From positions 11,348-75,347 of the forward strand of contig NIVC01003819.1 of the NCBI GenBank assembly GCA_002269645.1: a stretch of 64,000 bases of DNA. The letters are read 5' to 3'. Origin of the DNA: Macrostomum lignano. Lineage: Eukaryota. This document shows, one piece after another, positions 6,301 to 57,459 of the stretch; position 1 is the stretch's first letter; the number at the start of each line of letters is the position of its first letter. The notes under the pieces were generated by a model. It was not told the origin of the DNA. It made no database searches and worked only from the letters and a program-made list of their open reading frames with translations. Position numbers and translations under genes: made by a program.

Positions 6301-7766
6301 TCACCTGCACTCCGTCAGCAACAGCGGCACTTTATTGCTGATGGACGATCTGCTAGCTCAGGGCTTTTCACCGGCCAGCGCCACTCTGTCTGTGGAGCAG
6401 CTCTCCGCTGTAGTTGAAGGCTTCGGCCGTCTACAAGCGGCCTATTGGCTGGCCCGTCAGCAGTTGAACTTCGAGCTTGACAAGCACGTGTTCGCCGGAG
6501 GCGGCACCCCATTTGCCAATCCGCTCAGCGAGTCCGGCCTAGAGATGTCCACTATTGTTGGCAACGTGCCAAAACTGCTCGACGAACTGAAAAAGTTGCC
6601 GAGCGTCTCCGAAGCTGATGTTGAACTGTTAAGCGCCTATTTAAACAAAGAGGATGGATTTATGCAGATCTGCGAGACTAAACTGCTTGCCGACTTGACT
6701 GACTGGCCTAGTTTGGGCCTAGTTCACGGCGACCTCTGGTACCCCAACCTGATGCTGCGCCCTTCATCATCATCACCCGACAGCACTTACGAAGCGCGCA
6801 TTTTAGACTGGCAGTTTTGCGGTTTCGGCAAGCTAGGCCGCGATTTCGGCACTCTGTTGCTGACCAGCGCCGACTCTCGGGTGCTCACGGACGCTGGCCG
6901 GAGCTTTGAGCAGCTGATCGACCGGTTCTACGACTCATTCGCTGGCGAGTTTGTTGCCGGCGCCCTGGAGTCGACGGAGCCGCCCGTGTCCAAGTCGGCA
7001 GTTCGAGACAACTGCCTGGAGTCCTTGCACGGTGCCGTTCTCTGGCTGCTGTGGGATCCGCGACCAGATGTGGTGCTCGGTTGCCATGCCAACCTGTTGG
7101 CTATGCTTCGGAACCTGCCAATGGGCGATTTTTAATGACACTCTGTGCGCGTCTGCTATGACTCGAGTGGTCTCGTATCAATATTTATTAATTTCCTAGG
7201 CAGAATCAATTCCATTAGTTTGCTTGAAGGCTTGTGTAATAAGGAATAATGGCGGCAATATATATATATTAAATTTATAAATAGCAGCAAATATTCGACT
7301 TGAGCATTTTCGTCCTTTTTTATTACAAATTTTGAAAACCACTTATAATGCAAGCTGGAAGCGCTGTGATTTTATCTTCGTGGACAAAACGTTAAAAATG
7401 CAATAGCTACCTGTATATACAGAATTTTAAAGGCATTTACATGTACATGTAATTCAGTTCCTCATAATTTCGTTAATGTGAAGGCGGAGACTGGTTTTTG
7501 TGCGCAGAGGTTCGTACAAGTTAATGGACTTGGTTTTTTATGAAAAAATGCTACACATAACAAACAAAACTACGAAACTAGTTAGTTAGTTAGTTTGCCA
7601 GTCAGTTAGTTAGTTAGCTAGTTAGTTAGTTTGCCAGTCACTTAGTTAGCTAGTTAGCTAGTTAGCTAGTTAGTTAGTTTGCCAGTCAGTTAGTTAGTTA
7701 GCTAGTTAGTTAGTTTGCCAGTCACTTAGTTAGCTAGTTAGCTAGTTAGTTAGTTTGCCAGTTAGC

Positions 7767-8072: not shown

Positions 8073-11000
8073 GCCAGTCAGTTAGTTAGTTAGTTAGTGA
8101 GTTAGTTAGTTAGTTAGTCAGTCAGTCAGTCAGTCAGTCAGTCAGTCAGTCAGTCAGTCAGTCAGTCAGTCAGTCAGTCAGTCAGTCAGGCAGGCAGGCA
8201 GGCAGTCCCCTGCTACAGGTACATGTATATTAAGCAACTGTCAATTACCCCCATGCAGGCGACTCGGTGACCACCGATCACATCAGCCCGGCTGGCAACA
8301 TCGCCCGAAACAGCCCGGCGGCTCAGTACCTCACCAGCCGCGGCATTCAGCCTGCCCAGTTCAACTCCTACGGCTCTCGCCGCGGCAACGATCAAATCAT
8401 GGCCCGCGGCACCTTCGCCAATATTCGCCTGGTTAACCGACTGGTGGCCAACCCGGGCCCGAGGACTCTGCACCTGCCTGGCGGCGAAGAGATGAGCATC
8501 TTCGATGCGGCTGAACGATATCGACAGGCTGGGTCGCCTGTGGTGATTCTTGCCGGGAAGGAGTACGGATCGGGTGAGTCAGCGACCGTTGGAGTAGAGT
8601 AGGGTCTGCTTTTAGCTGCCAGAAAAGGGCTTACATATTAATTAAGAAAAGACGCAGGGAGAAGCAGACAAGTAGGCAGAGGCAGGGAGAAGCAAGGAGA
8701 GGACGAGGGAGAGAGAAGTAGGGAGAGGCAGAGAGAAGCAGGGAGAGGCAGAGAGAAGCAGGGAGAGGCAGAGAGAAGCAGGGAGAGGCAGAGAGAAGCA
8801 GGGAGAGGCAGAGAGCAGCACAGAGAGGCAGAGAGAAGTAGGGAGGCAGAGAGAAGTAGGGAGGCAGAGAGAAGCAGGGAGAGGCAGAGAGCAGCAGGGA
8901 GAGGCAGAGAAGCAGGGAGGCAGAGAGAAGCAGGGAGAGGCAGAGAGCAACAGGGAGAGGCAGAGAAGCAGGGAGGCAGAGAGAAGTAGGGAGGCAGAGA
9001 GAAGCAGGGAGAGGCAGAGAGCAGCAGAGAGCAGCAGGGAGAGGCAGAGAGCAGCAGGGAGAGGCAGATAGCAGCAGGGAGAGGCAGAGAAGCAGCAGGG
9101 AGAGGCAGAGAGCAGCAGAGAGCAGCAGGGAGAGGCAGAGAGCAGCACAGAGAGGCAGAGAGAAGTAGGGAGGCAGAGAGAAGTAGGGAGGCAGAGAGAA
9201 GCAGGGAGAGGCAGAGAGCAGCAGGGAGAGGCAGAGAAGCAGGGAGGCAGAGAGAAGCAGGGAGAGGCAGAGAGCAACAGGGAGAGGCAGAGAAGTAGGG
9301 AGGCAGAGAGAAGTAGGGAGGCAGAGAGAAGCAGGGAGAGGCAGAGAGCAGCAGAGAGCAGCAGGGAGAGGCAGAGAGCAGCAGGGAGAGGCAGATAGCA
9401 GCAGGGAGAGGCAGAGAAGCAGCAGGGAGAGGCAGAGAGCAGCAGAGAGCAGCAGGGAGAGGCAGAGAGCAGCAGGGAGAGGCAGAGAGCAGCAGGGAGA
9501 GGCAGAGAGCAGCAGGGAGAGGCAGAGAGCAGCAGGGAGAGGCAGAGAGCAGCAGGGAGAGGCAGAGAAGTCAGGAAAGGCAGAGAGAAGCAGGGAGAGG
9601 CAGAGAGCAGCAGGGAGAGGCAGAGAAGCAGGGAGGCAGAGAGAAGCAGGGAGAGGCAGAGAGCAGCAGGGAGAGGCAGAGAGCAGCAGAGAGAGGCAGA
9701 GAGCAGCAGGGAGAGGCAGAGAGCAGCAGGGAGAGGCAGAGAGCAGCAGGGAGAGGCAGAGAGCAGCAGGGAGAGGCAGAGAGCAGCAGAGAGCAGCAGG
9801 GAGAGGCAGAGAGCAGCAGGGAGAGGCAGAGAGCAGCAGGGAGAGGCAGAGAAGCAGGGAGGCAGAGAGAAGCAGGGAGAGGCAGAGAGCAGCAGGGAGA
9901 GGCAGAGAGCAGCAGAGAGGCAGAGAGCAGCAGGGAGAGGCAGAGAGCAGCAGGGAGAGGCAGAGAGCAGCAGGGAGAGGCAGAGAGCAGCAGGGAGAGG
10001 CAGAGAGCAGCAGAGAGCAGCAGGGAGAGGCAGAGAGCAGCAGGGAGAGGCAGAGAGCAGCAGGGAGAGGCAGAGAAGCAGGGAGGCAGAGAGAAGCAGG
10101 GAGAGGCAGAGAGCAGCAGGGAGAGGCAGAGAGCAGCAGAGAGGCAGAGAGCAGCAGGGAGAGGCAGAGAGCAGCAGGGAGAGGCAGAGAAGCAGGGAGG
10201 CAGAGAGAAGCAGGGAGAGGCAGAGAGCAGCAGGGAGAGGCAGAGAGCAGCAGAGAGAGGCAGAGAAGTCAGGAAAGGCAGAGAGAAGCAGGGAGAGGCA
10301 GAGAAGCAGAGAGAAGCAGGGAGAGGCAGAGAAGCTGAGAGAAGCAGGGAGAGGCAGAGAGCAGCACAGAGAGGCAGAGAGAAGCAGAGAGAGGCAGAGA
10401 GAAGCAGAGAGAGGCAGAGAGAAGCAGAGAGAGGCAGGGAGAAGCAGGGAGAGGCAGAGAGCAGCAGAGAGAGGCAGAGAGAAGCAGAGAGAGGCAGAGA
10501 GAAGCAGAGAGAGGCAGAGAGAAGCAGGGAGAGGCAGAGAGCAGCAGAGAGAGGCAGAGAGCAGCAGAGAGAGGCAGAGAGCAGCAGGGAGAGGCAGAGA
10601 AGTCAGGAAAGGCAGAGAGAAGCAGGGAGAGGCAGAGAAGCAGAGAGAAGCAGGGAGAGGCAGAGAAGCTGAGAGAAGCAGGGAGAGGCAGAGAGCAGCA
10701 GAGAGAGGCAGAGAGCAGCAGGGAGAGGCAGAGAGAAGTAGGGAGGCAGAGAGAAGCAGGGAGAGGCAGAGAGCAGCAGAGAGCAGCAGAGAGCAGCAGG
10801 GAGAGGCAGAGAGCAGCAGGGAGAGGCAGAGAGCAGCAGGGAGAGGCAGAGAGCAGTAGGGAGAGGCAGAGAGAAGTAGGGAGGCAGAGAGAGGCAGAGA
10901 GAGGCAGAGAGCAGCAGGGAGAGGCAGAGAAGTCAGGAAAGGCAGGGAGCAGTGGTAGCAAGAGAATCAATAGAAAGAGTTGAGTCGAGGAGACATGGCG

Positions 11001-11417
11001 CCTCAGTGCCAAGAAGCCAAAGCCGCAGCCGCGCGGACATTTTAATCATCAAATTTATGTGAACTGATCGCAGGCTCATCCAGAGACTGGGCCGCCAAGG
11101 GCCCCTGGATGCTGGGAGTCCGGGCCGTGCTGGCCCAGAGCTACGAGCGGATCCACCGCTCCAACTTGGCCGGCATGGGCATCCTGCCGCTGCAGTTTCT
11201 GCCCGGCCAGTCGGCTGAGTCGCTGGGACTTACCGGACGCGAGCTGATCAGCGTGTCCGGGCTGTCCGGGGACAGCCTGAAGCCCGGCTGCCTGCTGAAG
11301 GTGAGCACCGACTCCGGGCTGGAGTTCCAAGTGAAATGCCGGTTCGACACGGAAGTGGAACTGGAGTACTATCGCCATGGCGGCATACTGCAGTACATGA
11401 TCAGGAAGCTCATCTAG
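374..11417 (+). CDS. ACO1: Cytosolic aconitase / iron regulatory protein 1, 5'-partial (about 836 aa in window, 7 exons)
   Basis: Exons 374-598, 1358-1707, 2580-2895, 3490-4155, 4282-4576, 8259-8573, 11074-11417, all GT-AG and phase-consistent. Motifs [17 protein letters not shown]|[25 protein letters not shown] (three Fe-S cysteines), [16 protein letters not shown]|SSRDWAAKG and C-terminal [12 protein letters not shown] match the AcnA/IRP1 type. About the first 55 aa lie upstream of the window. Confidence 0.95.
690..1275. repeat. ~40-bp minisatellite (GAGAGAGCTGGAGCGATAAAAACACGAAATAATCGAT..)
   Basis: Tandem degenerate units in an ACO1 intron. Confidence 0.85.
1730..2500. repeat. 15-bp minisatellite (GAATTGGAATCCAGGT-like)
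   Basis: About 45 units in an ACO1 intron. Confidence 0.9.
3025..3385. repeat. ~33-bp minisatellite (AAACCCTCTGTCTTCATGGTCATTGCAGAATTT)
   Basis: About 10 tandem units. Confidence 0.9.
4785..5125. repeat. ~51-bp minisatellite
   Basis: About 6 units containing GACATTGTGAAATTTCGGGCTTGAG..CCTACCTCTCCAGTGTATTTC. Confidence 0.9.
5963..7135 (+). CDS. EcKinase-like / choline-kinase-like (APH superfamily) phosphotransferase, 390 aa, intronless, nested in an ACO1 intron
   Basis: Long GC-rich ORF with Brenner motif [17 protein letters not shown] metal-binding motif, [11 protein letters not shown] and an N-lobe Lys (LYAKY). Lies wholly inside ACO1 intron 4577-8258. Confidence 0.8.
   Translation: MKSEADCWLEACISKSLGLKQAAISLGVETFGVDGQLSYRRRVTVDNQNGSKDEKSLRLYAKYTSTSRSDMERYYQEMSYAVSKQECTFYGFLLPVLQRAVNGSRLCLAVPRCHLHSVSNSGTLLLMDDLLAQGFSPASATLSVEQLSAVVEGFGRLQAAYWLARQQLNFELDKHVFAGGGTPFANPLSESGLEMSTIVGNVPKLLDELKKLPSVSEADVELLSAYLNKEDGFMQICETKLLADLTDWPSLGLVHGDLWYPNLMLRPSSSSPDSTYEARILDWQFCGFGKLGRDFGTLLLTSADSRVLTDAGRSFEQLIDRFYDSFAGEFVAGALESTEPPVSKSAVRDNCLESLHGAVLWLLWDPRPDVVLGCHANLLAMLRNLPMGDF
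7578..8205. repeat. Compound microsatellite (TAGT)n-(CAGT)n-(CAGG)n
   Basis: Seen directly. Confidence 0.95.
8650..10950. repeat. Purine-rich ~20-bp minisatellite (GGGAGAGGCAGAGAGCAGCA)
   Basis: Fills most of the last ACO1 intron. Confidence 0.95.
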
Positions 11418-11641
11418 GTTCTCTAGAATTGTCCGTGATTCAACTTCAAAGAACATGTTTGCAATGATTTAGCCTTGATTTAACTTCTGATGACAATTAC
11501 CTGTTCCCCGATTCTGAATTTCTAAGATTAGGAAGTAAACATAAATTAGGTTTATTTATTAGTGTAATAATTTCAATATAGACGAGTTTATTAGTTATCG
11601 GATTGTCGTAGTTCGGTAAAATTACTACGCTTTTTAATTAT

Positions 11642-12474
11642 TGTCATGAATGTGTTATGACAGTGTGCTCTTTGCTAAGTTGCTGCACCGGGCCAGTGGG
11701 CCGTCCTCTCCCCCTCCCCCCTCCTTAGATATTTTCTGACTCACTCACCTGCACTTCTGCGCGTGCGTACCCCTCCCCTCCCTGCCTAGACCTTTTCTGT
11801 TGAGTCAACCCCCCATGCTCTGCGTGCGACCCCCCCCTGTGCGACCCCGCCCCATTATTTTGTTAGCTTTGCTGCCCCGCCCCTGTTTGTGATTGGCTGC
11901 CAGTCCCAGTCTGCCGTGCTGCGCCCCGGCGATTGGCTGGTACAGCTCATGCGTTGCCTTGGCTGATGTCTAAGCCCCCTTTTCTGCCTTTATCCCGCGC
12001 CCTCGACCCCCAGTTTGCTGCCTATTTATTCGGCCCCCCTGAGACCCCATTCTCGTCGTCTTTGTGGCTCCTCGGCGATTGTGCCAGCGTTGGTTGCTGA
12101 ATTACTATTCCTCGCAGAATTGCTAGACAAATATATAAGTAAAGAATATCGAGATCACCACTGCTCTGACGGCGCTGTTTCTTGTACGACTGAAATCGCG
12201 GCTGGTAAGCCTTCCAATTTGCACGTCATTTGGGTCTGCATCTGTACTAGGCACCTTAGAGGGATTAACTGCGTCGTACGCCGGTCCCACCCCAAGCAGC
12301 TCTGCGTCGTACGCGAGTCTGTAGGCTGTCGTGCGTCGTACGCTCGAGCAGCCTAGTCCCGACGGACACCGCGTCGTACGCGTGTCAGTGGAGGACCGCA
12401 GCCAGGGTCAGTACACGAACCCGGGTCTGGGAAAGGGGCACGAAAGGACCGAGCCCTTGAGCCCCATCATCACA
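11642..12474 (+). repeat. 5' LTR (833 bp)
   Basis: Starts TGTCATGAAT, ends CATCATCACA. Two ATTGG (reverse CCAAT) motifs near 11890 and 11932, TATATAA at 12132-12138. Differs from the 3' LTR only by three poly-C length differences and one C/T change that I could see. Confidence 0.95.
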
Positions 12475-12477
12475 AAT

Positions 12478-12494
12478 TGGCATCCTTGGTGGGA
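12478..12494 (+). promoter_or_regulatory. Primer-binding site (tRNA 3' end complement)
   Basis: TGGCATCCTTGGTGGGA begins 3 nt after the 5' LTR; TGG pairs with tRNA CCA. The primer tRNA is not identified (G discriminator). Confidence 0.8.
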
Positions 12495-12582
12495 CCCTGC
12501 GCTGTGGAAGACTAAGTAAGGAAGAAAGCTCGAGGCGCGGAATATTGTGAGAAATTAAGGTTGGAAACTGTGACGCCGTGGT

Positions 12583-13731
12583 ATGGATGCTGGAGGTGCT
12601 GCTGGAGGTGCTGCTGGAGGTGCGGCTGGAGGTGCGGCTGGAGGTGCTGCGGGAGGTGCTGCCGGAGGTGCGGCTGGAGGTGCGGCTGGAGGTGCGGCTG
12701 GAGGTGCGGCTGGAGGTGCGGCTGGAGGTGCGGCTGGAGGTGCGGCTGGAGGTGCTGCTGGAGCCTTTGGTGTTAATGATCTGGTCGCCGCCTTGACTGC
12801 TCAGATTCAGCAGAACATGCAGCAAGCGGGTGCCCTCAGGATTCAGAGGCCGGTGAAGTATGCTCCAGGAATGAATTTCGTGAAGTGGTTGAGGCTCTTC
12901 GTAGCTTATTGCGATGCCATGCAGATTCCGATGCAGAATCGGCGCGCTCAGTTGCTCAGCAACCTAGACTTTAGCACCTTCCAAGTTGTTGACAACATGA
13001 ACCTTGATGACGACCTGCAGTTCGAAGAATTTACCCAGGCCTTGAGGGATAGGTTCACTATGCACCGTACCGTCGTCGACTACCGCACAGAACTGAGCAA
13101 TAGAGAGCAGAGCGAGAAGGAGTCGGTAGAAGATTTCTCTGAAGCTGTGATTGAGTTGGTCGCAAACGCCTTTCCTGATGCGCCTGCCGATGTGCGCGAT
13201 GATCTTGCGAAAGAGCGATTTATGCGAGGCGTCCGTGCGGGGGTGGCTGTGCGGGAGCGACTGTACATGAGCCAGCCGGAGACGTTAGCGGACGCAATGC
13301 GTCTGGTGCATCAGCTGGAAGCGGCGGTTAGGGCAAGTCATGGTCCACCAGGTCAGGTATCGAAAAGAACCGTTTGTGCTGTTACGACCGAGACCAGAAA
13401 GGAGGCTTCCGAAAGCAGTGAGGTCGAGATGCTTCGAAAACAGCTGGCGGCCATGGAGATGCGAATGAAAGAGATGGAGGAGCGGAGGTCTGAAGAAGCG
13501 GCAGAGCCGACCCCGGCGAGTCGGAAGGCTGTGCAGTGTTTTTCGTGTCGAGAGTGGGGCCATATCTCATCAAAGTGTCCGAAGAAGACCAGTCAGAAGA
13601 GTGAAAACGGGAAATCGCCAGTACGATGTCACAAGTGCAACGGTGAAGGCCACCTATCCTTCAAGTGTCCGAAGTCGGGAAACGGGCCGAGGGGACCGAC
13701 CGGGGAGAGTCGGGACCCTGCCAGGAAATGA
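12583..13731 (+). CDS. gag: Retrotransposon Gag, 382 aa
   Basis: N-terminal (GGAA)x14, a helical capsid-like region and two CCHC knuckles (CFSCREWGHISSKC, CHKCNGEGHLSFKC). Confidence 0.9.
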   Translation: MDAGGAAGGAAGGAAGGAAGGAAGGAAGGAAGGAAGGAAGGAAGGAAGGAAGGAAGGAAGAFGVNDLVAALTAQIQQNMQQAGALRIQRPVKYAPGMNFVKWLRLFVAYCDAMQIPMQNRRAQLLSNLDFSTFQVVDNMNLDDDLQFEEFTQALRDRFTMHRTVVDYRTELSNREQSEKESVEDFSEAVIELVANAFPDAPADVRDDLAKERFMRGVRAGVAVRERLYMSQPETLADAMRLVHQLEAAVRASHGPPGQVSKRTVCAVTTETRKEASESSEVEMLRKQLAAMEMRMKEMEERRSEEAAEPTPASRKAVQCFSCREWGHISSKCPKKTSQKSENGKSPVRCHKCNGEGHLSFKCPKSGNGPRGPTGESRDPARK

Positions 13732-16700
13732 AGTCTCCCAGGAGCGAGGAACCGGGGTTGGTCACTAACTCTGTAAATAAATCCAAGTGCGTCTCTGGTG
13801 ATGGGAATTCAAAGAGCAACCTGGTTCAAGAGGGGGGTTCGTCGGTATCAACGGAGCCCTTGACAGTTTTTATTTCCGGTGCGGTTTCCGGCAAGCCAGT
13901 GGCTCTGCTGTTAGACAGTGGTGCGAGTGTGTCAGTGCTGAGCTGTGATGTTTTCCTGAGGCTGCCGCAAGAAGTGAGAGAGAGACTGACGATGATGGAC
14001 GGGGCCCTTTCAACGGCCAATGGAGGTGCGATGAGGATGAGAGGCTGTATTGTGCTGGACGTGGAGATTGGCGGCGAGCGGTGGTCAGCGAATTTCTTTG
14101 TAGTGGACGGATTGCGCTATGACGTCATTCTCGGGTCCGAATTTTTCAAACAGCATCGTTGCGTCATCAACTATTCAGAATTTGTCTTTCGAGTGGGCGA
14201 TGTTAGAGTTCCGATACGGCAGAAAGGCGAGCTGCCCGTGGTGTGTCGAATCAAAGCCGAGACAACGGTATTCCTGGAACCGGCGCAAGAAGTGATCATG
14301 CCAGCCAGGGTAGAGAAAAAGGGCGCAAGAAACTGCGGATCTGTCGGCATAACGGAAGAAAAGTCAGTGAAGGCCTCTGAGAAGGATTTGGCGCTGGCTC
14401 GAGCTCTGGTAGCGCCCGGCGTGGATGGACGGCTGCCGATGAGATTGCTGAATACGTCCAGTTGTAGGAAGAGGGTCAAGAAAGGAGAGACGATTGGCTG
14501 GTTTATTCCTTTGGAACCGAACGGAGGTATCAACGTGGTGCGCTTGGACGACGACGTAGAGGCCAAGAATGAAGCGGAGGCATGGGACCCGATCGAAGAA
14601 TTCCGCGAGTGGGGTTCGTGTGGCCTGTCGGAGGAGGAGGAAGCCGACTTCAGGGAGCTGATTTCCCAACATCGGGCTGTCTTTGCTAAGGACTCCAAGG
14701 ATCTCGGCTGTACGACCGTGATGAAGCACGAGATCGACACTGGAGATGCCAGGCCTGTGAAGGAAGCGGCGAGGCGGATTCCCCCGTACCTGCGGCAGGA
14801 AGTGGACAAGGAGTTGGATGACTTGCTGGAAGCTGGGAGAATCAGCGAGGTCCAGTCCCCATGGTGCTCTCCGGTGGTGTGCGTGAAAAAGAAGGACGGT
14901 TCCCTGAGGTTCTGTTGTGACTACCGGAAACTGAATGAAGTGACCAAGAAGGATGCAGTACCGTTGCCCAGGACAGATGACCTGTTGGAGAGTCTAGGCG
15001 GTGCCAAGATTTTTTCGACCATGGACATGCAGTCGGGATACTGGCAGATGGCGGTGGAACCCAGCGACAGACTGAAGACGGCCTTTGGCGTTTCACACCG
15101 GGTACAGCAGTACGCCTGGAACGTTATGCCATTTGGATTGACAAATGCACCGGCTTCATTCAGCCGGCTAATGAATGTGGTGTTGGGGAAGTTGTGCTGG
15201 AAGACGTGTTTGGTGTATCTGGACGACCTGCTAGTGTGGTCACGAACGGTAGAAGAGCACCTGGAACGGTTGCAAACGGTTTTTCGACGGTTGCGAGCAG
15301 CGAACATCAAACTGAAGCCGAAGAAGTGCGCATTCCTGCTGAAGTCAGTGACCTTCCTGGGACACGTAGTGTCAGCTGATGGGATCGCCACGAGTCCAGA
15401 AAAGATTGCCGAAATTCGTGACTGGCCAACTCCGAGGAATGTGAAGGAAGTAAGGTCATTCCTGGGACTGTGCGGGTATTACCGGCAATTCATCGCAGAT
15501 TTTTCCCGCATTGCTGAGCCGATGCTGCGACGGACCCGAAATGATTGCCCGTGGAGCTGGGATGAGGAGTGTCAAGCCGCATTCGAGGCCCTGAAGGAAA
15601 GGTTGCAGGGATCTGAGGTCATGGCGTTTCCAAACTTTGCGGAGGACGCTGGAGAATTCGTTTTAGACACAGACGGTAGCACAAAAGAAGGAATTGGCGC
15701 TGTGCTTTCGCAGGTGCAGAAAGATGGGAGTGAGAAGGTAATAGCTTACGGAAGCAGGACGTTGTCGCGAGAAGAACGGAATTACTGCACGACACGAGTC
15801 GAGTTGCTGGCCGTGGTGTTTTTCGTACAGAAGTTTCGTTATTACCTGATGGGGCGAGAGTTTCTAGTGCGCACCGATCACAGCAGCTTGAAGTGGCTGC
15901 ATTCGCTGCGGGACGTAGAAGGACAACTGGCCAGATGGCTGGAACTCTTGGCTCCGTACAGGTATCGCATCGAACATCGTCCGGGAGTGAAACATCAACA
16001 CGCGGACGCTCTCTCCAGGAAGCCACGTCGGCGCCATCAAGGAAGCGAGAGTTGTCCTGGATGTGCACAAGAGCAGATCGGCGTGAACGCGTTGGGATTG
16101 CAGAAGTGGACCTCGGAGGAGATCAGAGAGAGCCAGAAGATGGACAGCGACATTCGTCAGGCGATGGAGCTGCTGGCTCACAGCGACGGAGAGATAACCG
16201 AAGAGCATTTGCGGCGCATATCACCGACGGCAAGGAGGATTGTCGAAAGACGTCGTGACCTTGAGGTGTCGGACAGTGAGGTGTTGCTGTGTCATACGGC
16301 CAGTAGACGTCAGCCGCAAGTGGTGTTGCCACGGAATATGCTGAGAGCGGTGCTGGAAGAAGCTCATGGTGGACGGAGTGGAGGGCACGTTGGGATTTTC
16401 AAGACCAAGGAGAAGGTGCGGCAATCGTTTTGGTGGCCGGGACTTGGCCGCGAGGTCGAAGAGCACGTAAAAGCCTGTTTGGACTGCACCAAGGCCAAAG
16501 CTGGCAAGAAACCAATTGCACCGATGGAGCCGATTCCGAGTTCAAGCCCATTCGATATCGTGATGACGGACGTCATCGGGCCGCTGCCACGGAGCAAGAA
16601 AGGAAACTTCTACATCCTCACGGTGCAAGATGCGTTCTCAAAGTGGCCTGACGCTTATGCCATCCGGAACCAGAAGTCGGCAACGATCGCAAGGGTGCTA

Positions 16701-17615
16701 TTCGAACGCTGGATTGCCAATCACGGGTGCCCCCGGGTACTTCACTCAGACCAAGGAAGGAACTTTGAGTCGGGGATCGTCAGGAAGCTGTGCGAGCTGT
16801 TGGGTGTGAAGAAGACCAGGACGAGCGCCTACCACCCGAGTGGCAACGGACAGGTGGAACGATTTAACGGGTTCCTGAAGAGCAGTTTGCGCACGTATCT
16901 GGTACAGAAGGGTCAGAACGCCTGGGAGGAGTACCTGCCAAGTGCCTTGATGGCTTATCGATCGACGGTCCAGGCGTCCACCGGTTACACGCCCTACTAC
17001 ATGCTGCATGGTCAGGAGATGCCGCTGGGATTCGAACCAGAGGACCTTAGGCGAAAGACGGACAGCTATCCCTTGTTTGTGCAAGAGATCCAGCAGAACC
17101 TGCTTCATGCCCATGAACGCATTCGAGAAGGACGCGAGACGGTTCAGCGACGGCAGAAAATGAATTACGATCGGAAAGTAAAGGGCAAAGCGATTCAGAA
17201 GGGCGACTCTGTCTTGTTGTACTATCCGTGCTTGGAGATGGGAGAGAAAAGCAAGTTCCATATCAACTGGCGCGGCCCAGTGAAGGTCCTGGAGAAGCTG
17301 TCAGATGCGTTGTACCGAGTGCAGGATCCGACACAGCCGCAGAAGACCAAGGTGGTGCACTTCAACAATCTCCGGCCGGTTCAGGTTCAGACGGAGGCGG
17401 CAGACGGTCAAGAGACTAGAGAGGAAATTGGGAGGGCCAGTTCGGGAAAAACCAGGCCGCGACGTGATAATTCCACTGCTGGACGAAGCCGAAGGCAGAG
17501 AGTGCAACGGGGCGAGACCCAGAGGTGGACCGCAGCGACTCTGTCTTGCTGTACTATCCGTGCTTGGAGATGGGAGAGAAAAGCAAGTTCCATATCAACT
17601 GGCGCGGCCCAGTGA
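13665..17615 (+). CDS. pol: Retrotransposon Pol (protease, RT, RNase H, integrase) in the -1 frame relative to gag; native C-terminus displaced by rearrangement
   Basis: LLDSGAS protease, YLDDL RT, DTDGS..GIGAVL RNase H, HGGRSGGH..CLDC zinc finger, DVIGPLP / SDQGRNFES / GQVERFN integrase core, NWRGP (GPY/F-like). After 17534 the ORF runs out of frame into the 332-bp duplicate. Confidence 0.93.
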   Translation: MSEVGKRAEGTDRGESGPCQEMKSPRSEEPGLVTNSVNKSKCVSGDGNSKSNLVQEGGSSVSTEPLTVFISGAVSGKPVALLLDSGASVSVLSCDVFLRLPQEVRERLTMMDGALSTANGGAMRMRGCIVLDVEIGGERWSANFFVVDGLRYDVILGSEFFKQHRCVINYSEFVFRVGDVRVPIRQKGELPVVCRIKAETTVFLEPAQEVIMPARVEKKGARNCGSVGITEEKSVKASEKDLALARALVAPGVDGRLPMRLLNTSSCRKRVKKGETIGWFIPLEPNGGINVVRLDDDVEAKNEAEAWDPIEEFREWGSCGLSEEEEADFRELISQHRAVFAKDSKDLGCTTVMKHEIDTGDARPVKEAARRIPPYLRQEVDKELDDLLEAGRISEVQSPWCSPVVCVKKKDGSLRFCCDYRKLNEVTKKDAVPLPRTDDLLESLGGAKIFSTMDMQSGYWQMAVEPSDRLKTAFGVSHRVQQYAWNVMPFGLTNAPASFSRLMNVVLGKLCWKTCLVYLDDLLVWSRTVEEHLERLQTVFRRLRAANIKLKPKKCAFLLKSVTFLGHVVSADGIATSPEKIAEIRDWPTPRNVKEVRSFLGLCGYYRQFIADFSRIAEPMLRRTRNDCPWSWDEECQAAFEALKERLQGSEVMAFPNFAEDAGEFVLDTDGSTKEGIGAVLSQVQKDGSEKVIAYGSRTLSREERNYCTTRVELLAVVFFVQKFRYYLMGREFLVRTDHSSLKWLHSLRDVEGQLARWLELLAPYRYRIEHRPGVKHQHADALSRKPRRRHQGSESCPGCAQEQIGVNALGLQKWTSEEIRESQKMDSDIRQAMELLAHSDGEITEEHLRRISPTARRIVERRRDLEVSDSEVLLCHTASRRQPQVVLPRNMLRAVLEEAHGGRSGGHVGIFKTKEKVRQSFWWPGLGREVEEHVKACLDCTKAKAGKKPIAPMEPIPSSSPFDIVMTDVIGPLPRSKKGNFYILTVQDAFSKWPDAYAIRNQKSATIARVLFERWIANHGCPRVLHSDQGRNFESGIVRKLCELLGVKKTRTSAYHPSGNGQVERFNGFLKSSLRTYLVQKGQNAWEEYLPSALMAYRSTVQASTGYTPYYMLHGQEMPLGFEPEDLRRKTDSYPLFVQEIQQNLLHAHERIREGRETVQRRQKMNYDRKVKGKAIQKGDSVLLYYPCLEMGEKSKFHINWRGPVKVLEKLSDALYRVQDPTQPQKTKVVHFNNLRPVQVQTEAADGQETREEIGRASSGKTRPRRDNSTAGRSRRQRVQRGETQRWTAATLSCCTIRAWRWERKASSISTGAAQ
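13677..13719 (+). promoter_or_regulatory. Putative -1 ribosomal frameshift signal
   Basis: G GGA AAC (X XXY YYZ, correctly phased in gag) at 13677-13683, a 6-nt spacer, then the stem-loop AGGG-GA-CCGAC...GTCGG-GA-CCCT. Confidence 0.75.
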
Positions 17616-17866
17616 AGGTCCTGGAGAAGCTGTCAGATGCGTTGTACCGAGTGCAGGATCCGACACAGCCGCAGAAGACCAAGGTGGTGCACTTCAACAA
17701 TCTCCGGCCGGTTCAGGTTCAGACGGAGGCGGCAGACGGTCAAGAGACTAGAGAGGAAATTGGGAGGGCCAGTTCGGGAAAAACCAGGCCGCGACGTGAT
17801 AATTCCACTGCTGGACGAAGCCGAAGGCAGAGAGTGCAACGGGGCGAGACCCAGAGGTGGACCGCA
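17203..17866 (+). repeat. 332-bp direct tandem duplication of the integrase 3' region
   Basis: 17203-17534 is repeated at 17535-17866 with GCG microhomology at the junction. One visible difference (TTG vs CTG, synonymous Leu). Confidence 0.92.
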
Positions 17867-18826
17867 GCGGAGGGCACCCAGGACCAAACCCTGGCGTCGC
17901 AGGTCGAACAGCGGGAACACCACCATCACCGACATGTAGACAGCTTGACACGCTTGGCGACTCCACCGACGAACTCCGTGCCCCGGATACTTGCGACCGT
18001 CTCGCTCCAAGTAGCCCAGGATTTGCAGCATCAACTCCGGACCGAATTCCTTGAAATCCACCAAGGCAGTGGCGCACTTCCCCTTCAGGGCTAGCAGCAC
18101 CTCAAAGATGCCCCACGGGTCGCCCTTCCGCATTGCCTGGTGCAGTTTCTTCCGACTGGGTCCTACGTTCTCCAGTTCCGCGACGGTCACTGGTCGGCAC
18201 GGTCTTGTCTGAAGCCGGTACGCTCTCTGCAGATATTCTTCAATCAGGTTTCTACATCCGGCACAATCTTCCTCCGCTTCCCATGACGTCTCAAGCTCCT
18301 CTACACCGGCCCACTGCAGCAGATACTCCGCTCCTCGCTCCGTGACTCGTACTCCTAAGACCTTCTCGACCTCGTACTCCTCCGGCAGTGTCTCACTCGC
18401 CTCGTTCATCTCTTCGTCCTGCTCATCGTCTGAGGCCTCCTCACTTGCCTCCATCTTGACGTGCTCCTCATCCCTCCTCGCCTGTTCTCTCTCGTACGCC
18501 TCCTCAGCTAATCGGTCGCTCTCTTGTAGTCTTTCTATCTCTTCTCGGAGATCGTCGGGCATGTCTTCATCCTCTAACATCCCTTCTGCGAGCCGAAGCA
18601 TCTCATCCCGGTCACGAACAGCATTTCCAAAGATATCGTACAGCTTTCTAAGGAACGGACACGACAGTATTCGGTACGCCTCTTCGCACTCCTGGAATCT
18701 CTTCCGCGTCTCCTCTGTTGCGCTCTTGTCAGGGTGCAGTTCGCGTGCTCGACCGTAGAACGCTTTCCGAATCTGTGCCGCAGACGCCCACAGCTGCACT
18801 CCAAGACACTCGTAGAGGTCCGCCAT
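17633..18826 (-). CDS. Retroelement ORF3 in the inverted segment: DnaJ domain, acidic linker, chromodomain and unknown helical domain (397 aa as present, with a read-through tail)
   Basis: J domain 18826-18635 (YECLGV..ASAAQIRKAF..ELHPDK..RFQECEEAYRILS...RKLYD); chromodomain 18382-18233 (EEYEVEKVL..EYLLQWAG..TSWEAEEDC..LIEEY). Confidence 0.85.
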   Translation of the reverse strand: MADLYECLGVQLWASAAQIRKAFYGRARELHPDKSATEETRKRFQECEEAYRILSCPFLRKLYDIFGNAVRDRDEMLRLAEGMLEDEDMPDDLREEIERLQESDRLAEEAYEREQARRDEEHVKMEASEEASDDEQDEEMNEASETLPEEYEVEKVLGVRVTERGAEYLLQWAGVEELETSWEAEEDCAGCRNLIEEYLQRAYRLQTRPCRPVTVAELENVGPSRKKLHQAMRKGDPWGIFEVLLALKGKCATALVDFKEFGPELMLQILGYLERDGRKYPGHGVRRWSRQACQAVYMSVMVVFPLFDLRRQGLVLGALRCGPPLGLAPLHSLPSASSSSGIITSRPGFSRTGPPNFLSSLLTVCRLRLNLNRPEIVEVHHLGLLRLCRILHSVQRI

Positions 18827-19840
18827 CTGTAACAGTCCGGCCTAACTCCGATGAGCAATGAGACACGCACGACATGTACCTCCCTTCCCCTTTGGCTATC
18901 CAAGCGCCGTACACCGGACCCTTCTTCAGTAGTAGTACACCGGGACCCCAAACCGATCTGGCGGTCGCCGCAGACGTCTTGGTCGCCCTGCTTCCTCCTG
19001 TGCCGTCCTCACTTCCTGCTCGGGTACGTTGGCGTCGTTCGGCTCTGCCTCATCCTCTTCGTCCTGCTCCTCGTCGTACCGCGACTCATCGTCGTGCTCT
19101 TCTTCGTCATCGTCTGCTTCTCGACGCTCAGGTCCGGGCTCACAGTCTTCGGCCGATCTCCGAGAAGAGATAGAAAGACTACAAGAGAGCGACCGATTAG
19201 CTGAGGAGGCGTACGAGAGAGAACAGGCGAGGAGGGATGAGGAGCACGTCAAGATGGAGGCAAGTGAGGAGGCCTCAGACGATGAGCGGGACGAAGAGAT
19301 GAACGAGGCGAGTGAGACACTGCCGGAGGAGTACGAGGTCGAGAAGGTCTTAGGAGTACGAGTTACGGAGCGAGGAGCGGAGTATCTGCTGCAATGGGCC
19401 GGTGTAGAGGAGCTTGAGACGTCATGGGAAGCGGAGGAAGATTGTGCCGGATGTAGAAACCTGATTGAAGAATATCTGCAGAGAGCGTACCGGCTTCAGA
19501 CCAGACCGTGCCGACCAGTGACCGTCGCGGAACTGGAGAACGTAGGACCCAGTCGGAAGAAACTGCACCAGGCAATGCGAAAGGGCGACCCGTGGGGCAT
19601 CTTTGAGGTGCTGCTAGCCCTGAAGGGGAAGTGCGCCACTGCCTCGGTGGATTTCAAGGAATTCGGTCCGGAGTTGATGCTGCAGATCCTGGGCTACTTG
19701 GAGCGAGACGGTCGCAAGTATCCGGGGCACGGAGTTCGTCGGTGGAGTCGCCAAGCGTGTCAAGCTGTCTACATGTCGGTGATGGTGGTGTTCCCGCTGT
19801 TCGACCTGCGACGCCAGGGTTTGGTCCTGGGTGCCCTCCG
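17868..19840. repeat. 687-bp inverted repeat (arms 17868-18554 and 19154-19840, 599-bp spacer)
   Basis: Compared base by base: colinear, no indels, 7 substitutions. Confidence 0.95.
18926..19153 (-). pseudogene. Displaced, inverted C-terminal 75 aa of Pol
   Basis: AEDCEPG...RPRRLRRPPDRFGVPVYYY*, an acidic tail with the RxRRPPxR(F/Y) motif common at Gypsy integrase ends. Joins in frame to pol codon GCA at 17864-17866. Confidence 0.75.
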
Positions 19841-19868
19841 TAGGCTGTGGGATTCGTGCTCTGACTGA
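19154..19868 (+). pseudogene. Sense-orientation 3' part of ORF3 (chromodomain and C-domain, native stop)
   Basis: DLREEIERL...GALRRLWDSCSD*. 19154-19840 is an inverted copy of 17868-18554; the J domain is missing on this strand. Confidence 0.8.
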
Positions 19869-20430
19869 GGCTATGTCTTCCTAGGGACTTTGGGGCTAGG
19901 GGCTTGCAGTGCAGACCCAGGGACAGCGGAGCGGAGGTGGACCGGCCTTAACGGGTGCTGACGGAGCGACACGGCTGTGCAGCAACCGCAGGACTCGACG
20001 ACCAGCGCAGAGCGACCAGAGCAACCGGCGACAGTAGCGACAGGGAGACGAGGCACCAGAGCGACGGCCGTACTCGGCGGGATGCAGGGAAGCAGTGCTA
20101 GTATTACTTGTGAGAGTAAATGTTTGACGGTTTCATTTTTTTTGTTTTTTTGTTAACATTTAGCGTTTTTTTCGAACTTCAGCGTTTTTGTTAAAGTAAG
20201 TTTTTCCCAAAATTTGCGTTTTGCTTCCCAATGATGCGTACTCACTATCCTATGTTGAAGGTTTCTTCGTCATCTTTAAACGGTATAATCACTGCGGTTT
20301 TGTTTTTTGCTCGAACTAGTTGCCATGCGAGTCCAAAATATTTTTCAAATGCGGTTTGTTCCTCTGTTCAATTTTTTTGTTATAGTAGCATCATTTCAAT
20401 ATTCGACTTTTCGAACTCGAACTTTTGTCT

Positions 20431-20442
20431 AGGGGGAGGGAG
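20431..20442 (+). promoter_or_regulatory. Polypurine tract
   Basis: AGGGGGAGGGAG directly abutting the 3' LTR. Confidence 0.9.
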
Positions 20443-21275
20443 TGTCATGAATGTGTTATGACAGTGTGCTCTTTGCTAAGTTGCTGCACCGGGCCAGTGG
20501 GCCGTCCTCTCCCCCTCCCCCCTCCTTAGATATTTTCTGACTCACTCACCTGCACTTCTGCGCGTGCGTACCCCTCCCCTCCCTGCCTAGACCTTTTCTG
20601 TTGAGTCAACCCCCATGCTCTGCGTGCGACCCCCCCCCCTGTGCGACCCCGCCCATTATTTTGTTAGCTTTGCTGCCCCGCCCCTGTTTGTGATTGGCTG
20701 CCAGTCCCAGTCTGCCGTGCTGCGCCCCGGCGATTGGCTGGTACAGCTCATGCGTTGCCTTGGCTGATGTCTAAGCCCCCTTTTCTGCCTTTATCCCGCG
20801 CCCTCGACCCCCAGTTTGCTGCCTATTTATTCGGCCCCCTTGAGACCCCATTCTCGTCGTCTTTGTGGCTCCTCGGCGATTGTGCCAGCGTTGGTTGCTG
20901 AATTACTATTCCTCGCAGAATTGCTAGACAAATATATAAGTAAAGAATATCGAGATCACCACTGCTCTGACGGCGCTGTTTCTTGTACGACTGAAATCGC
21001 GGCTGGTAAGCCTTCCAATTTGCACGTCATTTGGGTCTGCATCTGTACTAGGCACCTTAGAGGGATTAACTGCGTCGTACGCCGGTCCCACCCCAAGCAG
21101 CTCTGCGTCGTACGCGAGTCTGTAGGCTGTCGTGCGTCGTACGCTCGAGCAGCCTAGTCCCGACGGACACCGCGTCGTACGCGTGTCAGTGGAGGACCGC
21201 AGCCAGGGTCAGTACACGAACCCGGGTCTGGGAAAGGGGCACGAAAGGACCGAGCCCTTGAGCCCCATCATCACA
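20443..21275 (+). repeat. 3' LTR (833 bp)
   Basis: Direct repeat of 11642-12474 at offset 8801; preceded by the PPT and followed by the TTAT TSD. Confidence 0.95.
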
Positions 21276-21712
21276 TTATTGTTGTGTAACCCTTCTGGTC
21301 AAACAAATATATAAGCAGCAATGCGAGACGGTTGATTGCGCAATGTAGGTTACCAGTTATAGTGTTTTAATGTTTTATTAATTGGGCTTACGAATACATT
21401 GAAACTGAGCTGAATACTTTAAAAAAATTACCAACACAGAGAGCAGACTTTGGACTAGCTTAATAATTAATAAATCCTCTTGAAATTCGTACTGGTAATT
21501 GGCAAAGTGGACTCCTTTTCAAAGGAGAAGAGAAGTCGTCAAGCCCCACTCCGCTGGGTCATGGACAACTAGGCTTTCTTAGAAATTGGAGCTAGAGGCC
21601 TATGTATTCGTTGCTATAAGTAATAAGATCGTTCTTACATGTAGCTCCGCAGTGTAGAAGTTCCAATGTTTGTAATGTATATAGTGGTCAGTCTAGACCT
21701 GTTCTTCTATTT

Positions 21713-24456: not shown

Positions 24457-27400
24457 TTAAGTCTCAACCTCGACATCAGCGGAAGCAGCAGACTTTTCCC
24501 GCTCCTTGGCCTTGATGTACCGCAGGGCCACCTTCGCAGCGCTGTTCCTGGCAATGCGGTAGTTGCGGCCGACTCCGGCAAAGCGGCCCTTGCCGATGAC
24601 ATGAACCACGACACGAATGGTGCCGCTGGCTGTGCGAGTCGGCTGTCTGAAGTGGGACCAGTGTGTCTTGATCCGTGTGTCTTGATCAGTGTGTCTTGAT
24701 CAGTGTGTCTTGATCAGTGTGTCTGGATCAGAGTGTCTTGATCAGAGTGTCTTGATCAGTGTGTGTGTCTTGATCCGTGTGTCTCGATCAGTGTGTCTTG
24801 ATCAGTGTGTCTTGATCAGAGTGTCTTGATCAGAGTGTCTTGATCCGTGTGTCTTGACCAGTGTGTCTTGATCCGTGTGTCTTGACCAGTGTGTCTTGAT
24901 CCGTGTGTCTTGACCAGTGTGTCTTGATCAGTGTGTCTTGATCTGTTTGTCTGGATCAGTGTGTCTTGATCAGTGTGTCTTGATCAGTGTGTCTTGATCA
25001 GTGTGTCTTGATCCGTGTGTCTTGACCAGTGTGTCTTAACCAGTATGTCTTGATCAGTGTGTCTTGACCCGTGTGTCTTGATCAGTATGTCTTGATCAGT
25101 GTGTCTTGATCAGTGTGTCTTGATCAGAGTGTCTTGATCCGTGTGTCTTGATCCGTGTGTCTTGACCAGTGTGTCTTGATCCGTGTGTCTTGATCAGTGT
25201 GTCTTGATCCGTGTGTCTTGATCAGTGTGTCTTGATCAGTGTGTCTTGATCAGTGTGCCTTGATCAGAGTGTCTTGATCAGTGTGTCTTGATCAAAGTGT
25301 CTTGATCAGTGTGTCTTGATCAGAGTGTCTTGATCAGAGTGCCTTGATCAGTGTGTCTTGATCAGTGTGTCTTGATCAGTGTGTCTTGATCAGAGTGTCT
25401 TGATCAGTGTGTCTGGATCAGTGTGTCTTGATCAGTGTGTCTTGATCAGTGTGTCTTGATCCGAGTGTCTGGATCAGTGTGTCTTGATCAGTGTGTCTTG
25501 ATCAGTGTGTCTTGATCAGTGTGTCTTGATCAGTGTGTCTTGATCAGAGTGTCTTGATCAGAGTGTCTTGATCAGTGTATCTTGATCCGTGTGTCTTGAC
25601 CAGTGTGTCTTGATCAGTGTGTCTTGATCAGTGTGTCTGGATCAGAGTGTCTTGATCAGTGTGTCTTGATCAGAGTGTCTTGATCAGTGTGTCTTGATCA
25701 GTGTGTCTGGATCAGAGTGTCTTGATCAGTGTGTCTTGATCAGTGTGTCTTGACCAGTGTGTCTTGATCCGTGTGTCTTGACTAGTGTGTCTTGATCCGT
25801 GTGTCTTGACCAGTGTGTCTTGATCAGTGTGTCTTGATCAGTGTGTCTTGACCAGTGTGTCTTGATCAGTGTGTCTTGATGAGAGTGTCTTGATCAGAGT
25901 GTCTTGATCAGTGTGTCTTGATCAGTGTGTCTTGATCCGTGTGTCTTGACCAGTGTGTCTTGATCAGTGTGTCTGGATCAGAGTGTCTTGATCAGAGTGT
26001 CTTGATCCGTGTGTCTTGACCAGTGTGTCTTGATCCGTGTGTCTTGACCAGTGTGTCTTGATCCGTGTGTCTTGACCAGTGTGTCTTGATCAGTGTGTCT
26101 TGATCTGTTTGTCTGGATCAGTGTGTCTTGATCAGTGTGTCTTGATCAGTGTGTCTTGATCAGTGTGTCTGGATCAGAGTGTCTTGATCAGTGTGTCTTG
26201 ATCAGAGTGTCTTGATCAGTGTGTCTTGATCAGTGTGTCTTGATCCGTGTGTCTTGATCCGTGTGTCTTGACTAGTGTGTCTTGATCCGTGTGTCTTGAT
26301 CAGTGTGTCTTGATCTGTTTGTCTGGATCAGTGTGTCTTGATCAGTGTGTCTTGATCCGTGTGTCTTGACCAGTGTGTCTTGATCCGTGTGTCTTGATCA
26401 GTGTGTCTTGATCTGTTTGTCTGGATCAGTGTGTTTTGATCAGTGTGTCTTGATCAGTGTGTCTTGATCCGTGTGTCTTGACCAGTGTGTCTTGATCAAA
26501 GTGTCTTGATGAGAGTGTCTTGATCAGAGTGTCTTGATCAGTGTGTCTTGATCAGAGTGTCTTGATCAGTGTGTCTGGATCAGTGTGTCTTGATCAGAGT
26601 GTCTTGATCAGAGTGTCTTGATCAGTGTGTCTTGATCAGTGTGTCTTGATCAGAGTGTCTTGATCAGTGTGTCTTGATCAGAGTGTCTTGATCAGTGTGT
26701 CTTGATCAGTGTGTCTTGATCAGTGTGTCTTGATCAGTGTGTCTTGATCAGAGTGTCTTGATCAGTGTGTCTTGATCAGTGTGTCTGGATCAGTGTGTCT
26801 TGATCAGTGTGTCTTGATCAGAGTGTCTTGATCAGTGTGTCTTGATCAGAGTGTCTTGATCAGTGTGTCTTGATGAGAGTGTCTTGATCAGAGTGTCTTG
26901 ATCAGTGTGTCTTGATCAGAGTGTCTTGATCAGTGTGTCTTGATCAGTGTGTCTTGCACCAAGGTGGGTTGAACTAAAAATGCCTGTGATATCTGCCCAT
27001 CCCGCTGACTACTGAGCACATGCAAGCGCGTCAATACTGTACGCAGGCACAGCACTCACACACGCTCACACAGGGTGTACAGCGGGCCTGACTTTCGAAT
27101 CGTCATTCGTCAGGCATGTAAACTGTCTGCGCGAAATATGACCCAAAACTCACTCAAACTTTGTGCAGTCCGGCTCAGTCTCTAAAAGTTCTCGAACCAG
27201 CGACTTGGGTATTTCGGCTGTATAGCACTCTGAAATGTTTGTAGGGAGAGGTTAAAGTTAAGGGCGAATCTCAGGGCAGTCTAAGAGGCGAAACTTAAGG
27301 CAGTCCAAGGGCGATTCTCAAGGCTGTCTAAGGGCGAATCTCAGGGCAGTATAAGAGGCAAATCTCAAGGCAGTCTAAAAGGCGATTCTCAAGGCTGTGT

Positions 27401-56600: not shown

Positions 56601-57134
56601 GTGCATAAGTCCCAAATGAATGTGGCTGCGCAGGGAATCGAACCAGGGGTCATGGCGCGGGAGTCACGCGTTTATCACTGAGCTGCTCTCTGTCTGTCTG
56701 TCTGTCTGCCTTAGTGTCTGTGTGTCTGTCTGTCTGCCTGTCTGCCTGTCTGTCTGTCTGCCTGTCTATCTGTCTGTCTTAGTGTCTGTGTGTCTGTCTG
56801 TCTGTCTGTCTGTCTGTCTGCCTGTCTTTCTGACTGTCTGTCTGTCTATCTGTCTGTCTGTCTTAGTGTCTGTGTGTCTGTCTGTCTGTCCGTCTGTCTG
56901 TCTTAGTGTCTGTGTGTCTGTCTGTTTGCCTGTCTTAGTCTCTATCTGTCTGCCTGTATGTCTGTCTGCCTGTCTGTCTGTCTGTCTGCCTGCCTGTCTG
57001 TCTTAGTGTCTGTGTGTCTGTCTGTCTGCCTGCCTGTCTGTCTGTCTGTCTTAGTGTCTGTGAGTCTGTCTGTCTGCCTGTCTGTCTGTCTGTCTTAGTG
57101 TCTGTGTGTCTGTCTGCCTGTCTGTCTGTCTGCC

Positions 57135-57171
<37 letters not shown>

Positions 57172-57310
57172 GTCTGTCTGTCTGTCTGTCTTAGTGTCTG
57201 TGTGTCTGTCTGTCTGTCTGTGTGTCTGTCTGTCTGCCTGTCTGTCTGTCTGTCTGCCTGTCTGTCTGTCTATCTGTCTGTCTGTCTGTCTGTCTGTCTT
57301 AGTGTCTGTG

Positions 57311-57343
<33 letters not shown>

Positions 57344-57425
57344 TAGTGTCTGTGTGTCTGTCTGTCTTGGTGTCTGTCTGTCTGCCTGTCTTAGTCTCTA
57401 TCTGTCTGCCTGTATGTCTGTCTGC

Positions 57426-57459
<34 letters not shown>

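Follow-up and report, generated by a model that had tools for sequence, protein, structure and literature searches.

We found that the LTR retrotransposon lying in the window (by which we mean the whole 64,000-nt stretch of Macrostomum lignano DNA analysed here) carries after pol a third open reading frame, ORF3, encoding a J-domain protein, and that this ORF3 is real, under selection and clade-wide. When an LTR retrotransposon has an extra ORF, it is usually env or something of unknown nature; the present one is apparently undescribed and adds a new type of ORF3 to an element of a known kind. Its conserved unit is a J domain, a linker and a five-helix C-terminal domain. The original prediction, made on the window alone, had taken a J domain plus a chromodomain as the unit, and this was not sustained: the chromodomain occurs in one of the eight ORF3-bearing families (the A lineage only), with the J domain and the C-terminal helical domain being kept in all of them.

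The LTR retrotransposon of the window

Positions 11642-21275 of the window are a single LTR retrotransposon, a young copy of a Ty3/Gypsy family (here family A), with the TG..CA LTR pair, the target-site duplication, the CCHC gag and the protease-RT-RNase H-integrase order of that group. The LTRs, of 833 nt each, differ by one mismatch and four gap columns, and the target-site duplication is of 4 nt, TTAT in the window element and GGAC in L041, an unrearranged full-length copy of the same family. The features of the element are as follows.

11642..12474, plus strand: 5' LTR (TG..CA), with the target-site duplication TTAT directly before it at 11638-11641
12478..12495, plus strand: primer-binding-site-like sequence immediately 3' of the 5' LTR
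12547..12551, plus strand: GTGAG, splice-donor-like by its motif, in the leader upstream of gag
12583..13731, plus strand: gag, with a Gly/Ala repeat, a capsid-like part and two CCHC knuckles
13647..17534, plus strand: pol (protease, RT, RNase H, integrase with p58_C), in the -1 frame relative to gag, broken by the rearrangement
13677-13683, plus strand: slippery-type heptamer in the gag-pol overlap
17203..17867, plus strand: 332-nt tandem duplication within the integrase tail (repeat starts 17203 and 17535), only in the window copy among the fetched loci
17633..18826, minus strand: natural open frame, ORF3 codons 1-320 followed by unrelated antisense pol sequence
17868..19154, minus strand: inverted block with the pol tail, the spacer and most of ORF3
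18224..18376, minus strand: chromodomain (aa 151-201), cage Y/W/V; a second, sense copy at 19332-19484, plus strand
18377..18634, minus strand: helical extension and acidic linker, net charge -17 across aa 101-150
18635..18820, minus strand: J domain with HPD (aa 3-64), Pfam E 8e-16; its model fits solved J domains with rmsd 1.0-1.4 A
18827..18832, minus strand: YTNCAG, splice-acceptor-like, adjoining the ORF3 ATG
18926..19153, minus strand: acidic integrase tail and pol stop, within the inverted block
19154..19868, plus strand: second, sense part of ORF3 (aa 92-328), with linker, chromodomain, complete C-terminal domain and stop
19545..19865, plus strand: five-helix C-terminal domain (aa 222-328), common to all ORF3 families
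20431..20442, plus strand: polypurine tract
20443..21275, plus strand: 3' LTR, followed by TTAT at 21276-21279

A GGGAAAN heptamer of the slippery type lies in the gag-pol overlap of families A-D (in B and C at L031:1579 and L032:2302), which suggests -1 frameshifting in these families. The primer site of family A differs from that of families B and C, which (in L031 and L032, just past the 5' LTR) we take to be of the tRNA-Lys type, and to judge from these sites a switch of primer tRNA seems to have occurred in the clade. No chromovirus-type integrase fusion was found, since Pfam gave no Chromo match in pol and all chromodomain matches of the element fall in ORF3; the natural pol tail, as seen in L041, is acidic. 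The RT motifs of family A look to us unlike those of Mag and CsRN1. For Macrostomum lignano, 40 Gmr1/Osvaldo families are listed (PMC12801592).

The element lies about 220 nt behind the stop of a host gene with exons at window positions 3418-4182 and 11046-11417, which we presume to be aconitase-like; two other genome matches to this flank stop at the insertion point, and the element is thus absent there. A 406-codon open frame lies within the region of this gene (5915-7135). Elsewhere in the window, minisatellite arrays (24625-27000, with a 14-nt unit from 24625, 8600-10950 and 55000-58100) give rise to spurious long open frames, and at 38840-40488 a 1.1-kb core is flanked by a nested set of inverted repeats (86-92% complementary), perhaps a small DNA transposon.

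The window copy is rearranged, the first 687 nt of the inverted block being a repeat of 19154-19840. The three rearrangement junctions tested are confined to the window locus and absent from every other fetched locus. Between the arms of 687 nt there are 7 differences, more than between the two LTRs; 4 of 24 other copies match the inverted arm exactly, and the sense arm is at least 4 positions away from each of the 24. Two templates thus appear to have been combined in the window copy, by template switching, recombination or an assembly chimera. The ORF3 finding is unaffected; unrearranged copies show the whole protein without any join.

The ORF3 protein of family A

The 328-aa ORF reconstructed in the original prediction, placed within the LTRs and 99 nt after the pol stop, is seen without a join in L041, where the order is LTR-gag-pol-99 nt-ORF3-LTR and the ATG lies 99 nt past the pol stop. 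Among 30 loci collected, 27 are family-A loci that reach ORF3, and 15 of these have a single open 328-aa ORF and 2 a 326-aa ORF, so that ORF3 is intact (326-328 aa) in 17 of 27 and broken or cut in 10, the window included; these are counts of assembly loci, lower bounds that may include duplicates of single insertions. Macrostomum lignano has been described as a hidden polyploid (PMC10468722, in part). One database protein, a Macrostomum lignano hypothetical protein, is identical to the family-A ORF3.

Both domains predicted, the J domain with its intact HPD and the chromodomain, stand well above the Pfam cut-offs: in the minus-strand frame of the window (18826 to 17633) DnaJ (PF00226) scores 58.3 bits against a cut-off of 27.8 and Chromo (PF00385) 47.3 bits against 25.1, and in the natural copy the J domain scores 59.1 bits and the chromodomain 47.7 bits against 25.1. 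With a J fold and HPD, and without G/F region, zinc finger or DnaJ_C domain, the ORF3 of this family encodes a soluble J-domain protein of class C type. It was rightly predicted not to be env: Pfam matches are to DnaJ and Chromo only, no signal peptide or membrane anchor of the env type was found, and there is no hydrophobic helix, the top 19-residue hydropathy being 1.35 in family A and 1.04-1.45 across five ORF3 proteins. The same number of proteins (5/5) lack an LxCxE motif. No chromoshadow domain was matched by Pfam, and the C-terminal domain is all-helical.

The best solved relatives of the chromodomain are Swi6 (E 2.5e-10) and HP1/CBX. The reference aromatic cage is Y24, W45 and Y48 (PMC3350952, in part); family A has Y/W/V, with Val at the third position as originally read, the database protein P0005 has Leu there (Y/W/L), and a sister subfamily has three aromatic residues, F/W/F, in 3/3 loci (L030, L034, L038). 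Two family-A copies lack two codons within the chromodomain. In the full-length model the chromodomain is unfolded (pLDDT <50), the alignment having mixed in chromodomain-less rows, and this model was not used for it.

The C-terminal part is helical, as foreseen, with a length of about 107 aa (222-328) instead of the estimated 120 or so. Its model is confident (pLDDT 87.9, pTM 0.81) and found no match with Foldseek (best E 0.48 in the PDB and 0.80 among viral models); VIA-align gave a best Z of 8.6, with rmsd 3.0 A over 100 residues, which is under the tool's meaningful level for helical bundles. A PDB sequence search returned designed helical proteins only, two Atlas look-ups gave no match, and a metagenome scan with the family-A domain yielded 510 pattern matches, 0 of them confirmed. 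This absence of fold matches to a predicted structure does not by itself establish a new fold.

A clade of families with ORF3

By RT, the closest relatives that family A has in the genome show 56-65% identity. In eight families pol is directly followed by an ORF3 with a J or J-like domain and the helical domain; both LTRs, or parts of both, lie within the fetched stretch for A, B (L031), C (L032) and D (L033), and pol and ORF3 only for E (L042), H (L045), I (L046) and K (L049). The helical domain recurs in B at 26 places (at least 94% identity), in C at 20 (at least 99%) and in D at 6 (at least 95%), and its scores are weak in E and H (E-values of 2e-6 and 3e-4 within their own loci). HPDK is invariant in 8/8 aligned ORF3 proteins, which are 25-76% identical to each other; family H has lost HPD, yet it keeps a 571-codon frame in about ten copies.

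Families B, C, D and E have neither a chromodomain nor a TatD-like barrel, and families H, I and K have a TatD-like barrel behind the helical domain. The TatD profile scored above its cut-off in one of three hit pieces (28.8 bits vs 27), and a profile search with the TatD-like part led to TatD proteins with E 1e-5 to 9e-4. Set against two named TatD proteins, all three barrels retain the glutamate of GE and two of the three the first His, and the ETD motif and the other His residues have been replaced in all three; taking our assignment of the metal-binding residues as correct, the barrel is probably catalytically dead. Full-length barrels with most of these residues missing were seen at L045:3215-4741 and L048:58-1734 and in L046, L049, L050, L051 and L043.

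Six further RT lineages were sampled, and two of them (L044, L047) have no ORF3 in the fetched stretch, L044 being interrupted by a minisatellite within the integrase. A third of the six, L043, has the TatD-like part only, and L050, with J, helical and TatD-like parts and no pol within the fetched 5 kb, is outside the count of eight. Three database proteins extend the group: P0005, 76% identical to family A, with a chromodomain, and P0033 and P0039, with J and helical domains and no chromodomain seen. Because the best match of P0033 in the Macrostomum lignano genome is 46%, and the family-A searches show no 76% class, these proteins are probably from other genomes; among the database matches there was no named ORF3 member outside Macrostomum.

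On the ORF3 tree the three chromodomain-bearing sequences group together, and on the integrase tree the TatD-bearing families are a supported clade; the RT tree does not settle the order of the families. A J-domain tree against 40 other J domains (4 changes, 70 columns, one outgroup row being family E itself) leaves most forks open and does not show a single origin. Open frames at L036:1531-3120, upstream of a decayed ORF3 fragment, have a Cys/His pattern that to our eye resembles a ubiquitin-specific protease, and P0106 (ENA), of 263 aa, has a host-type J domain and then an HP1-like chromodomain, is unrelated to ORF3 elsewhere and may be a chimeric assembly.

Selection on ORF3 and its exchange between elements

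In 7/7 subfamily comparisons (Nei-Gojobori, in-frame stretches) dN/dS is 0.16-0.30, with upper 95% limits of 0.25-0.47; several dS values are near saturation, which makes the lower limits soft and leaves the upper ones below about 0.47. Within family A (18 copies vs L011) there are 30 synonymous and 15 non-synonymous variant codons, a ratio of 0.16. ORF3 is thus under purifying selection and is not a decaying capture; absence or decay in other copies with dN/dS near 1, the outcome that would have told against the prediction, did not occur, and the predicted third ORF, encoded by the element and not env, is borne out.

In both close-pol pairs of sister subfamilies (2/2), whose partner copies are decayed, the DNA identity is 68-69% in ORF3 vs 92-94% in pol, and silent divergence is about five times higher in ORF3: dS is 1.29 in ORF3 vs 0.24 in pol for A vs L034, and 1.19 vs 0.25 for B vs L035. 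At the protein level, ORF3s about 57-60% identical thus sit on gag-pol backbones 92-94% identical in DNA. For B vs L035 the shift in identity lies between pol and the beginning of ORF3, and for A vs L034 the final stretch of ORF3 is again 91% identical; A vs L038, a third pair, shows deep divergence in pol and ORF3 alike. Given how much further sister subfamilies have diverged in ORF3 than in pol, we read these patterns as pointing to exchange of ORF3 between elements as a cassette, although recombination homogenising pol could also produce the gap.

Expression signals of ORF3

The top trans-splice acceptor motif of Macrostomum lignano is YTNCAG, and the donor motif is GTRAG (PMC8629364, in part). 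Among the six families with a clear ORF3 ATG, four (A, B, C, H) have a YTNCAG ending 0-16 nt upstream of the start, and a TAG stands directly before the start in D and one base before it in E. The chance of YTNCAG per such window is 4.4%, which gives p about 5e-5 if the families were independent, which they are not, and with a window size picked after inspection. GTGAG occurs in the leader of 4/4 full-length families (A-D), against 1.6 GTRAG per kb, and is missing from the decayed L034; in family I and in L050 the acceptor motif is present and the expected ATG absent. The acceptor-like motifs before the starts, together with the donor-like GTGAG of the leader, suggest that ORF3 is expressed from a subgenomic, spliced or trans-spliced mRNA. 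In contigs of four runs, of which we guess three to be RNA, gag, pol and ORF3 are all covered and the leader-ORF3 joint is not listed, which is uninformative either way. The heat-shock table of PMC12801592, whose ids are not mapped to the ORF3 families, has 6 rows with PF00226 and 0 with PF00385.

Comparison with known systems

A J-domain ORF in an LTR element is not described in the literature that we searched, and the architecture was not found catalogued there; Repbase, Dfam, GyDB and the earlier classification paper on the host lay outside this search. A preprint on Macrostomum lignano LTR elements (10.1101/2024.12.18.629116) names GAG, PR, RT, RNH and INT only in the part consulted, and DnaJ, chromo, ORF, Hsp40 and TatD are all absent from the main text of the published version (PMC12801592). 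Neither DnaJ nor TatD appears in the part consulted of a review on accessory domains (PMC6338049), and the mention of DNAJ in a sunflower repeat study refers to gene families and not to an element ORF (PMC3852528, in part).

The nearest parallels are the LTR elements of bdelloid rotifers, which also have a third, non-env ORF after pol, with no membrane helix, a captured cellular-type domain and a proposed auxiliary role; their ORF3s are, however, single enzyme domains (DEDDy exonuclease, GDSL esterase) with no clear departure from neutrality within the genome (PMC5408684, in part). In contrast, the Macrostomum ORF3 is an adaptor built on a J domain and a conserved helical domain; its modules are swappable, and it is clearly under purifying selection. 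Family A shares the combination of Ty3/Gypsy and an HP1-type chromodomain with chromoviruses and with SM1-Galahad of Selaginella, where the chromodomain lies in a separate 113-aa ORF3 (PMC3350952, in part), and it differs from chromoviruses in having the chromodomain inside a J-domain protein, not on the integrase, and in one lineage only. Errantiviruses make env by splicing. Errantiviruses and other env-bearing Gypsy elements share the gag-pol-ORF3 order (PMC13524379, in part) and splice-like signals that could yield a subgenomic mRNA with the ORF3 families, whose product differs from errantivirus env in lacking a signal, a membrane helix and any fusion-glycoprotein match; integrase chromodomains are also reported in animal errantiviruses (PMC13524379, in part).

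A mobile element encoding an N-terminal J domain with HPD is a feature that ORF3 shares with polyomavirus T antigens. ORF3 differs from T antigen in having no LxCxE or helicase part, in its client domain and in belonging to a retrotransposon and not to a DNA virus. The J protein of phage RB43 (PMC3486835, in part) is a further case, and by analogy an element-encoded J domain could direct host Hsp70. Comparably to the putative reader in family A, a reader of silencing marks is coupled to a J protein in plant SUVH1/3-DnaJ1/2 and MBD5/6-SILENZIO; these complexes differ in being host-encoded, in consisting of two separate chains and in reading DNA methylation, and one of them activates and the other silences (PMC12902148, in part).

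Possible function of ORF3

Class C J proteins combine an Hsp70 recruiter with a client binder, and the invariant HPDK next to a conserved, unrelated domain suggests this layout for ORF3, whose function would then depend on what its client is. We lean, at a little short of even confidence, towards ORF3 being a host-directed Hsp70 recruiter that counters silencing. It would be translated from its own spliced or trans-spliced mRNA, its J domain would bring in host Hsp70, and its five-helix domain would bind a host client, most likely in the silencing machinery (repressive chromatin or small-RNA complexes), which Hsp70 would then loosen or remove, in the way that polyomavirus T antigen remodels Rb-E2F through Hsc70. 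The variable module would set the site of action, the chromodomain directing it to marked chromatin in family A and the TatD-like barrel, if dead, to a nucleic acid or protein partner in other families. A silencing client is favoured because both add-ons are of chromatin or nucleic-acid types and because the chromodomain is closest to Swi6 and HP1/CBX, with a full aromatic cage kept in the sister subfamily, and we infer a host-facing partner, over one matched to Gag or Pol, from the divergent ORF3 alleles on near-identical gag-pol. Among plant complexes, the reader and J protein of SUVH1/3-DnaJ1/2 promote expression of silenced loci, but J proteins also serve silencing, as in MBD5/6-SILENZIO, which by analogy counts against a silencing-counter role (PMC12902148, in part). 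The dN/dS values also count against it, being those of constraint and not of the positive selection often left by an arms race, as does the lack of an LxCxE motif in the five proteins scanned. Moreover, chromatin targeting is weakened as a general reading by the absence of the chromodomain in 7/8 families and the Val at the third cage position, and the presence of this domain in 1/8 makes it a lineage add-on rather than the basic function; Hsp70 recruitment itself does not seem to be required in all families, since family H lost HPD and keeps the frame.

ORF3 might instead serve the element's own machinery, the helical domain binding Gag, RT or integrase, with Hsp70 used for folding, assembly or uncoating and the family-A chromodomain tethering the integration complex to chromatin in trans, a role that in chromoviruses falls to the fused chromodomain. 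This is a real though doubtful possibility, consistent with the position of ORF3 after pol in all eight families, with the largely vertical descent at depth implied by the chromodomain grouping on the ORF3 tree and by the TatD clade, and with precedents in the MAGGY chromodomain, which binds H3K9me2/3 and has been proposed to target integration, and in the free chromodomain ORF3 of SM1-Galahad (PMC3350952, in part). The cassette-like divergence of ORF3 on nearly constant gag-pol speaks against it, as does the window insertion behind a last exon, a single site, but one unlike deep heterochromatin. It is unlikely that ORF3 acts as a general Hsp70 decoy or stress modulator, diverting Hsp70 from clients such as heat-shock factor and so favouring expression under stress: some Macrostomum lignano LTR families are strongly heat-induced (10.1101/2024.12.18.629116, in part) and a phage J protein stabilises a bacterial heat-shock factor (PMC3486835, in part), but no heat-shock elements (at most 1 mismatch) were found in the full LTRs of A and C or in the scanned parts of those of B and D, and neither a conserved helical domain nor add-on modules would be needed for a decoy. 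Finally, the junctions found only in the window locus, and its two arms resembling two templates, might suggest a functionless captured host gene or an artefact of a rearranged locus, which we consider very improbable, being contradicted by selection on ORF3 (dN/dS far below 1) and by its open frames in 17/27 loci and eight families; besides, the helical-domain matches fetched with a readable start or pol are all element-like or decayed fragments, and the genome's closest chromodomains outside elements share no more than 33-38% identity. A small remainder of probability falls to functions other than these.

Stated most broadly, an animal LTR clade may have evolved a modular, programmable Hsp70 adaptor as a counter-defence, with a fixed J domain and a client domain of an undescribed fold family, interchangeable modules (HP1-like chromodomain, dead TatD), expression through host splicing or the spliced leader and exchange as a cassette, which would strip silencing complexes by means of the host chaperone and so be a retrotransposon counterpart of T antigen; as a composite, we would sooner doubt this than expect it. 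To our knowledge, few counter-silencing proteins are known from animal transposons. If ORF3 works against silencing, it would be a case of a transposon directing Hsp70 at chromatin, and if it serves the particle, it would identify a chaperone step for which other retroelements rely on the host. The natural variants, with a chromodomain, with a TatD-like barrel or with neither, offer a ready-made functional comparison in a host for which RNAi and transgenesis are available.
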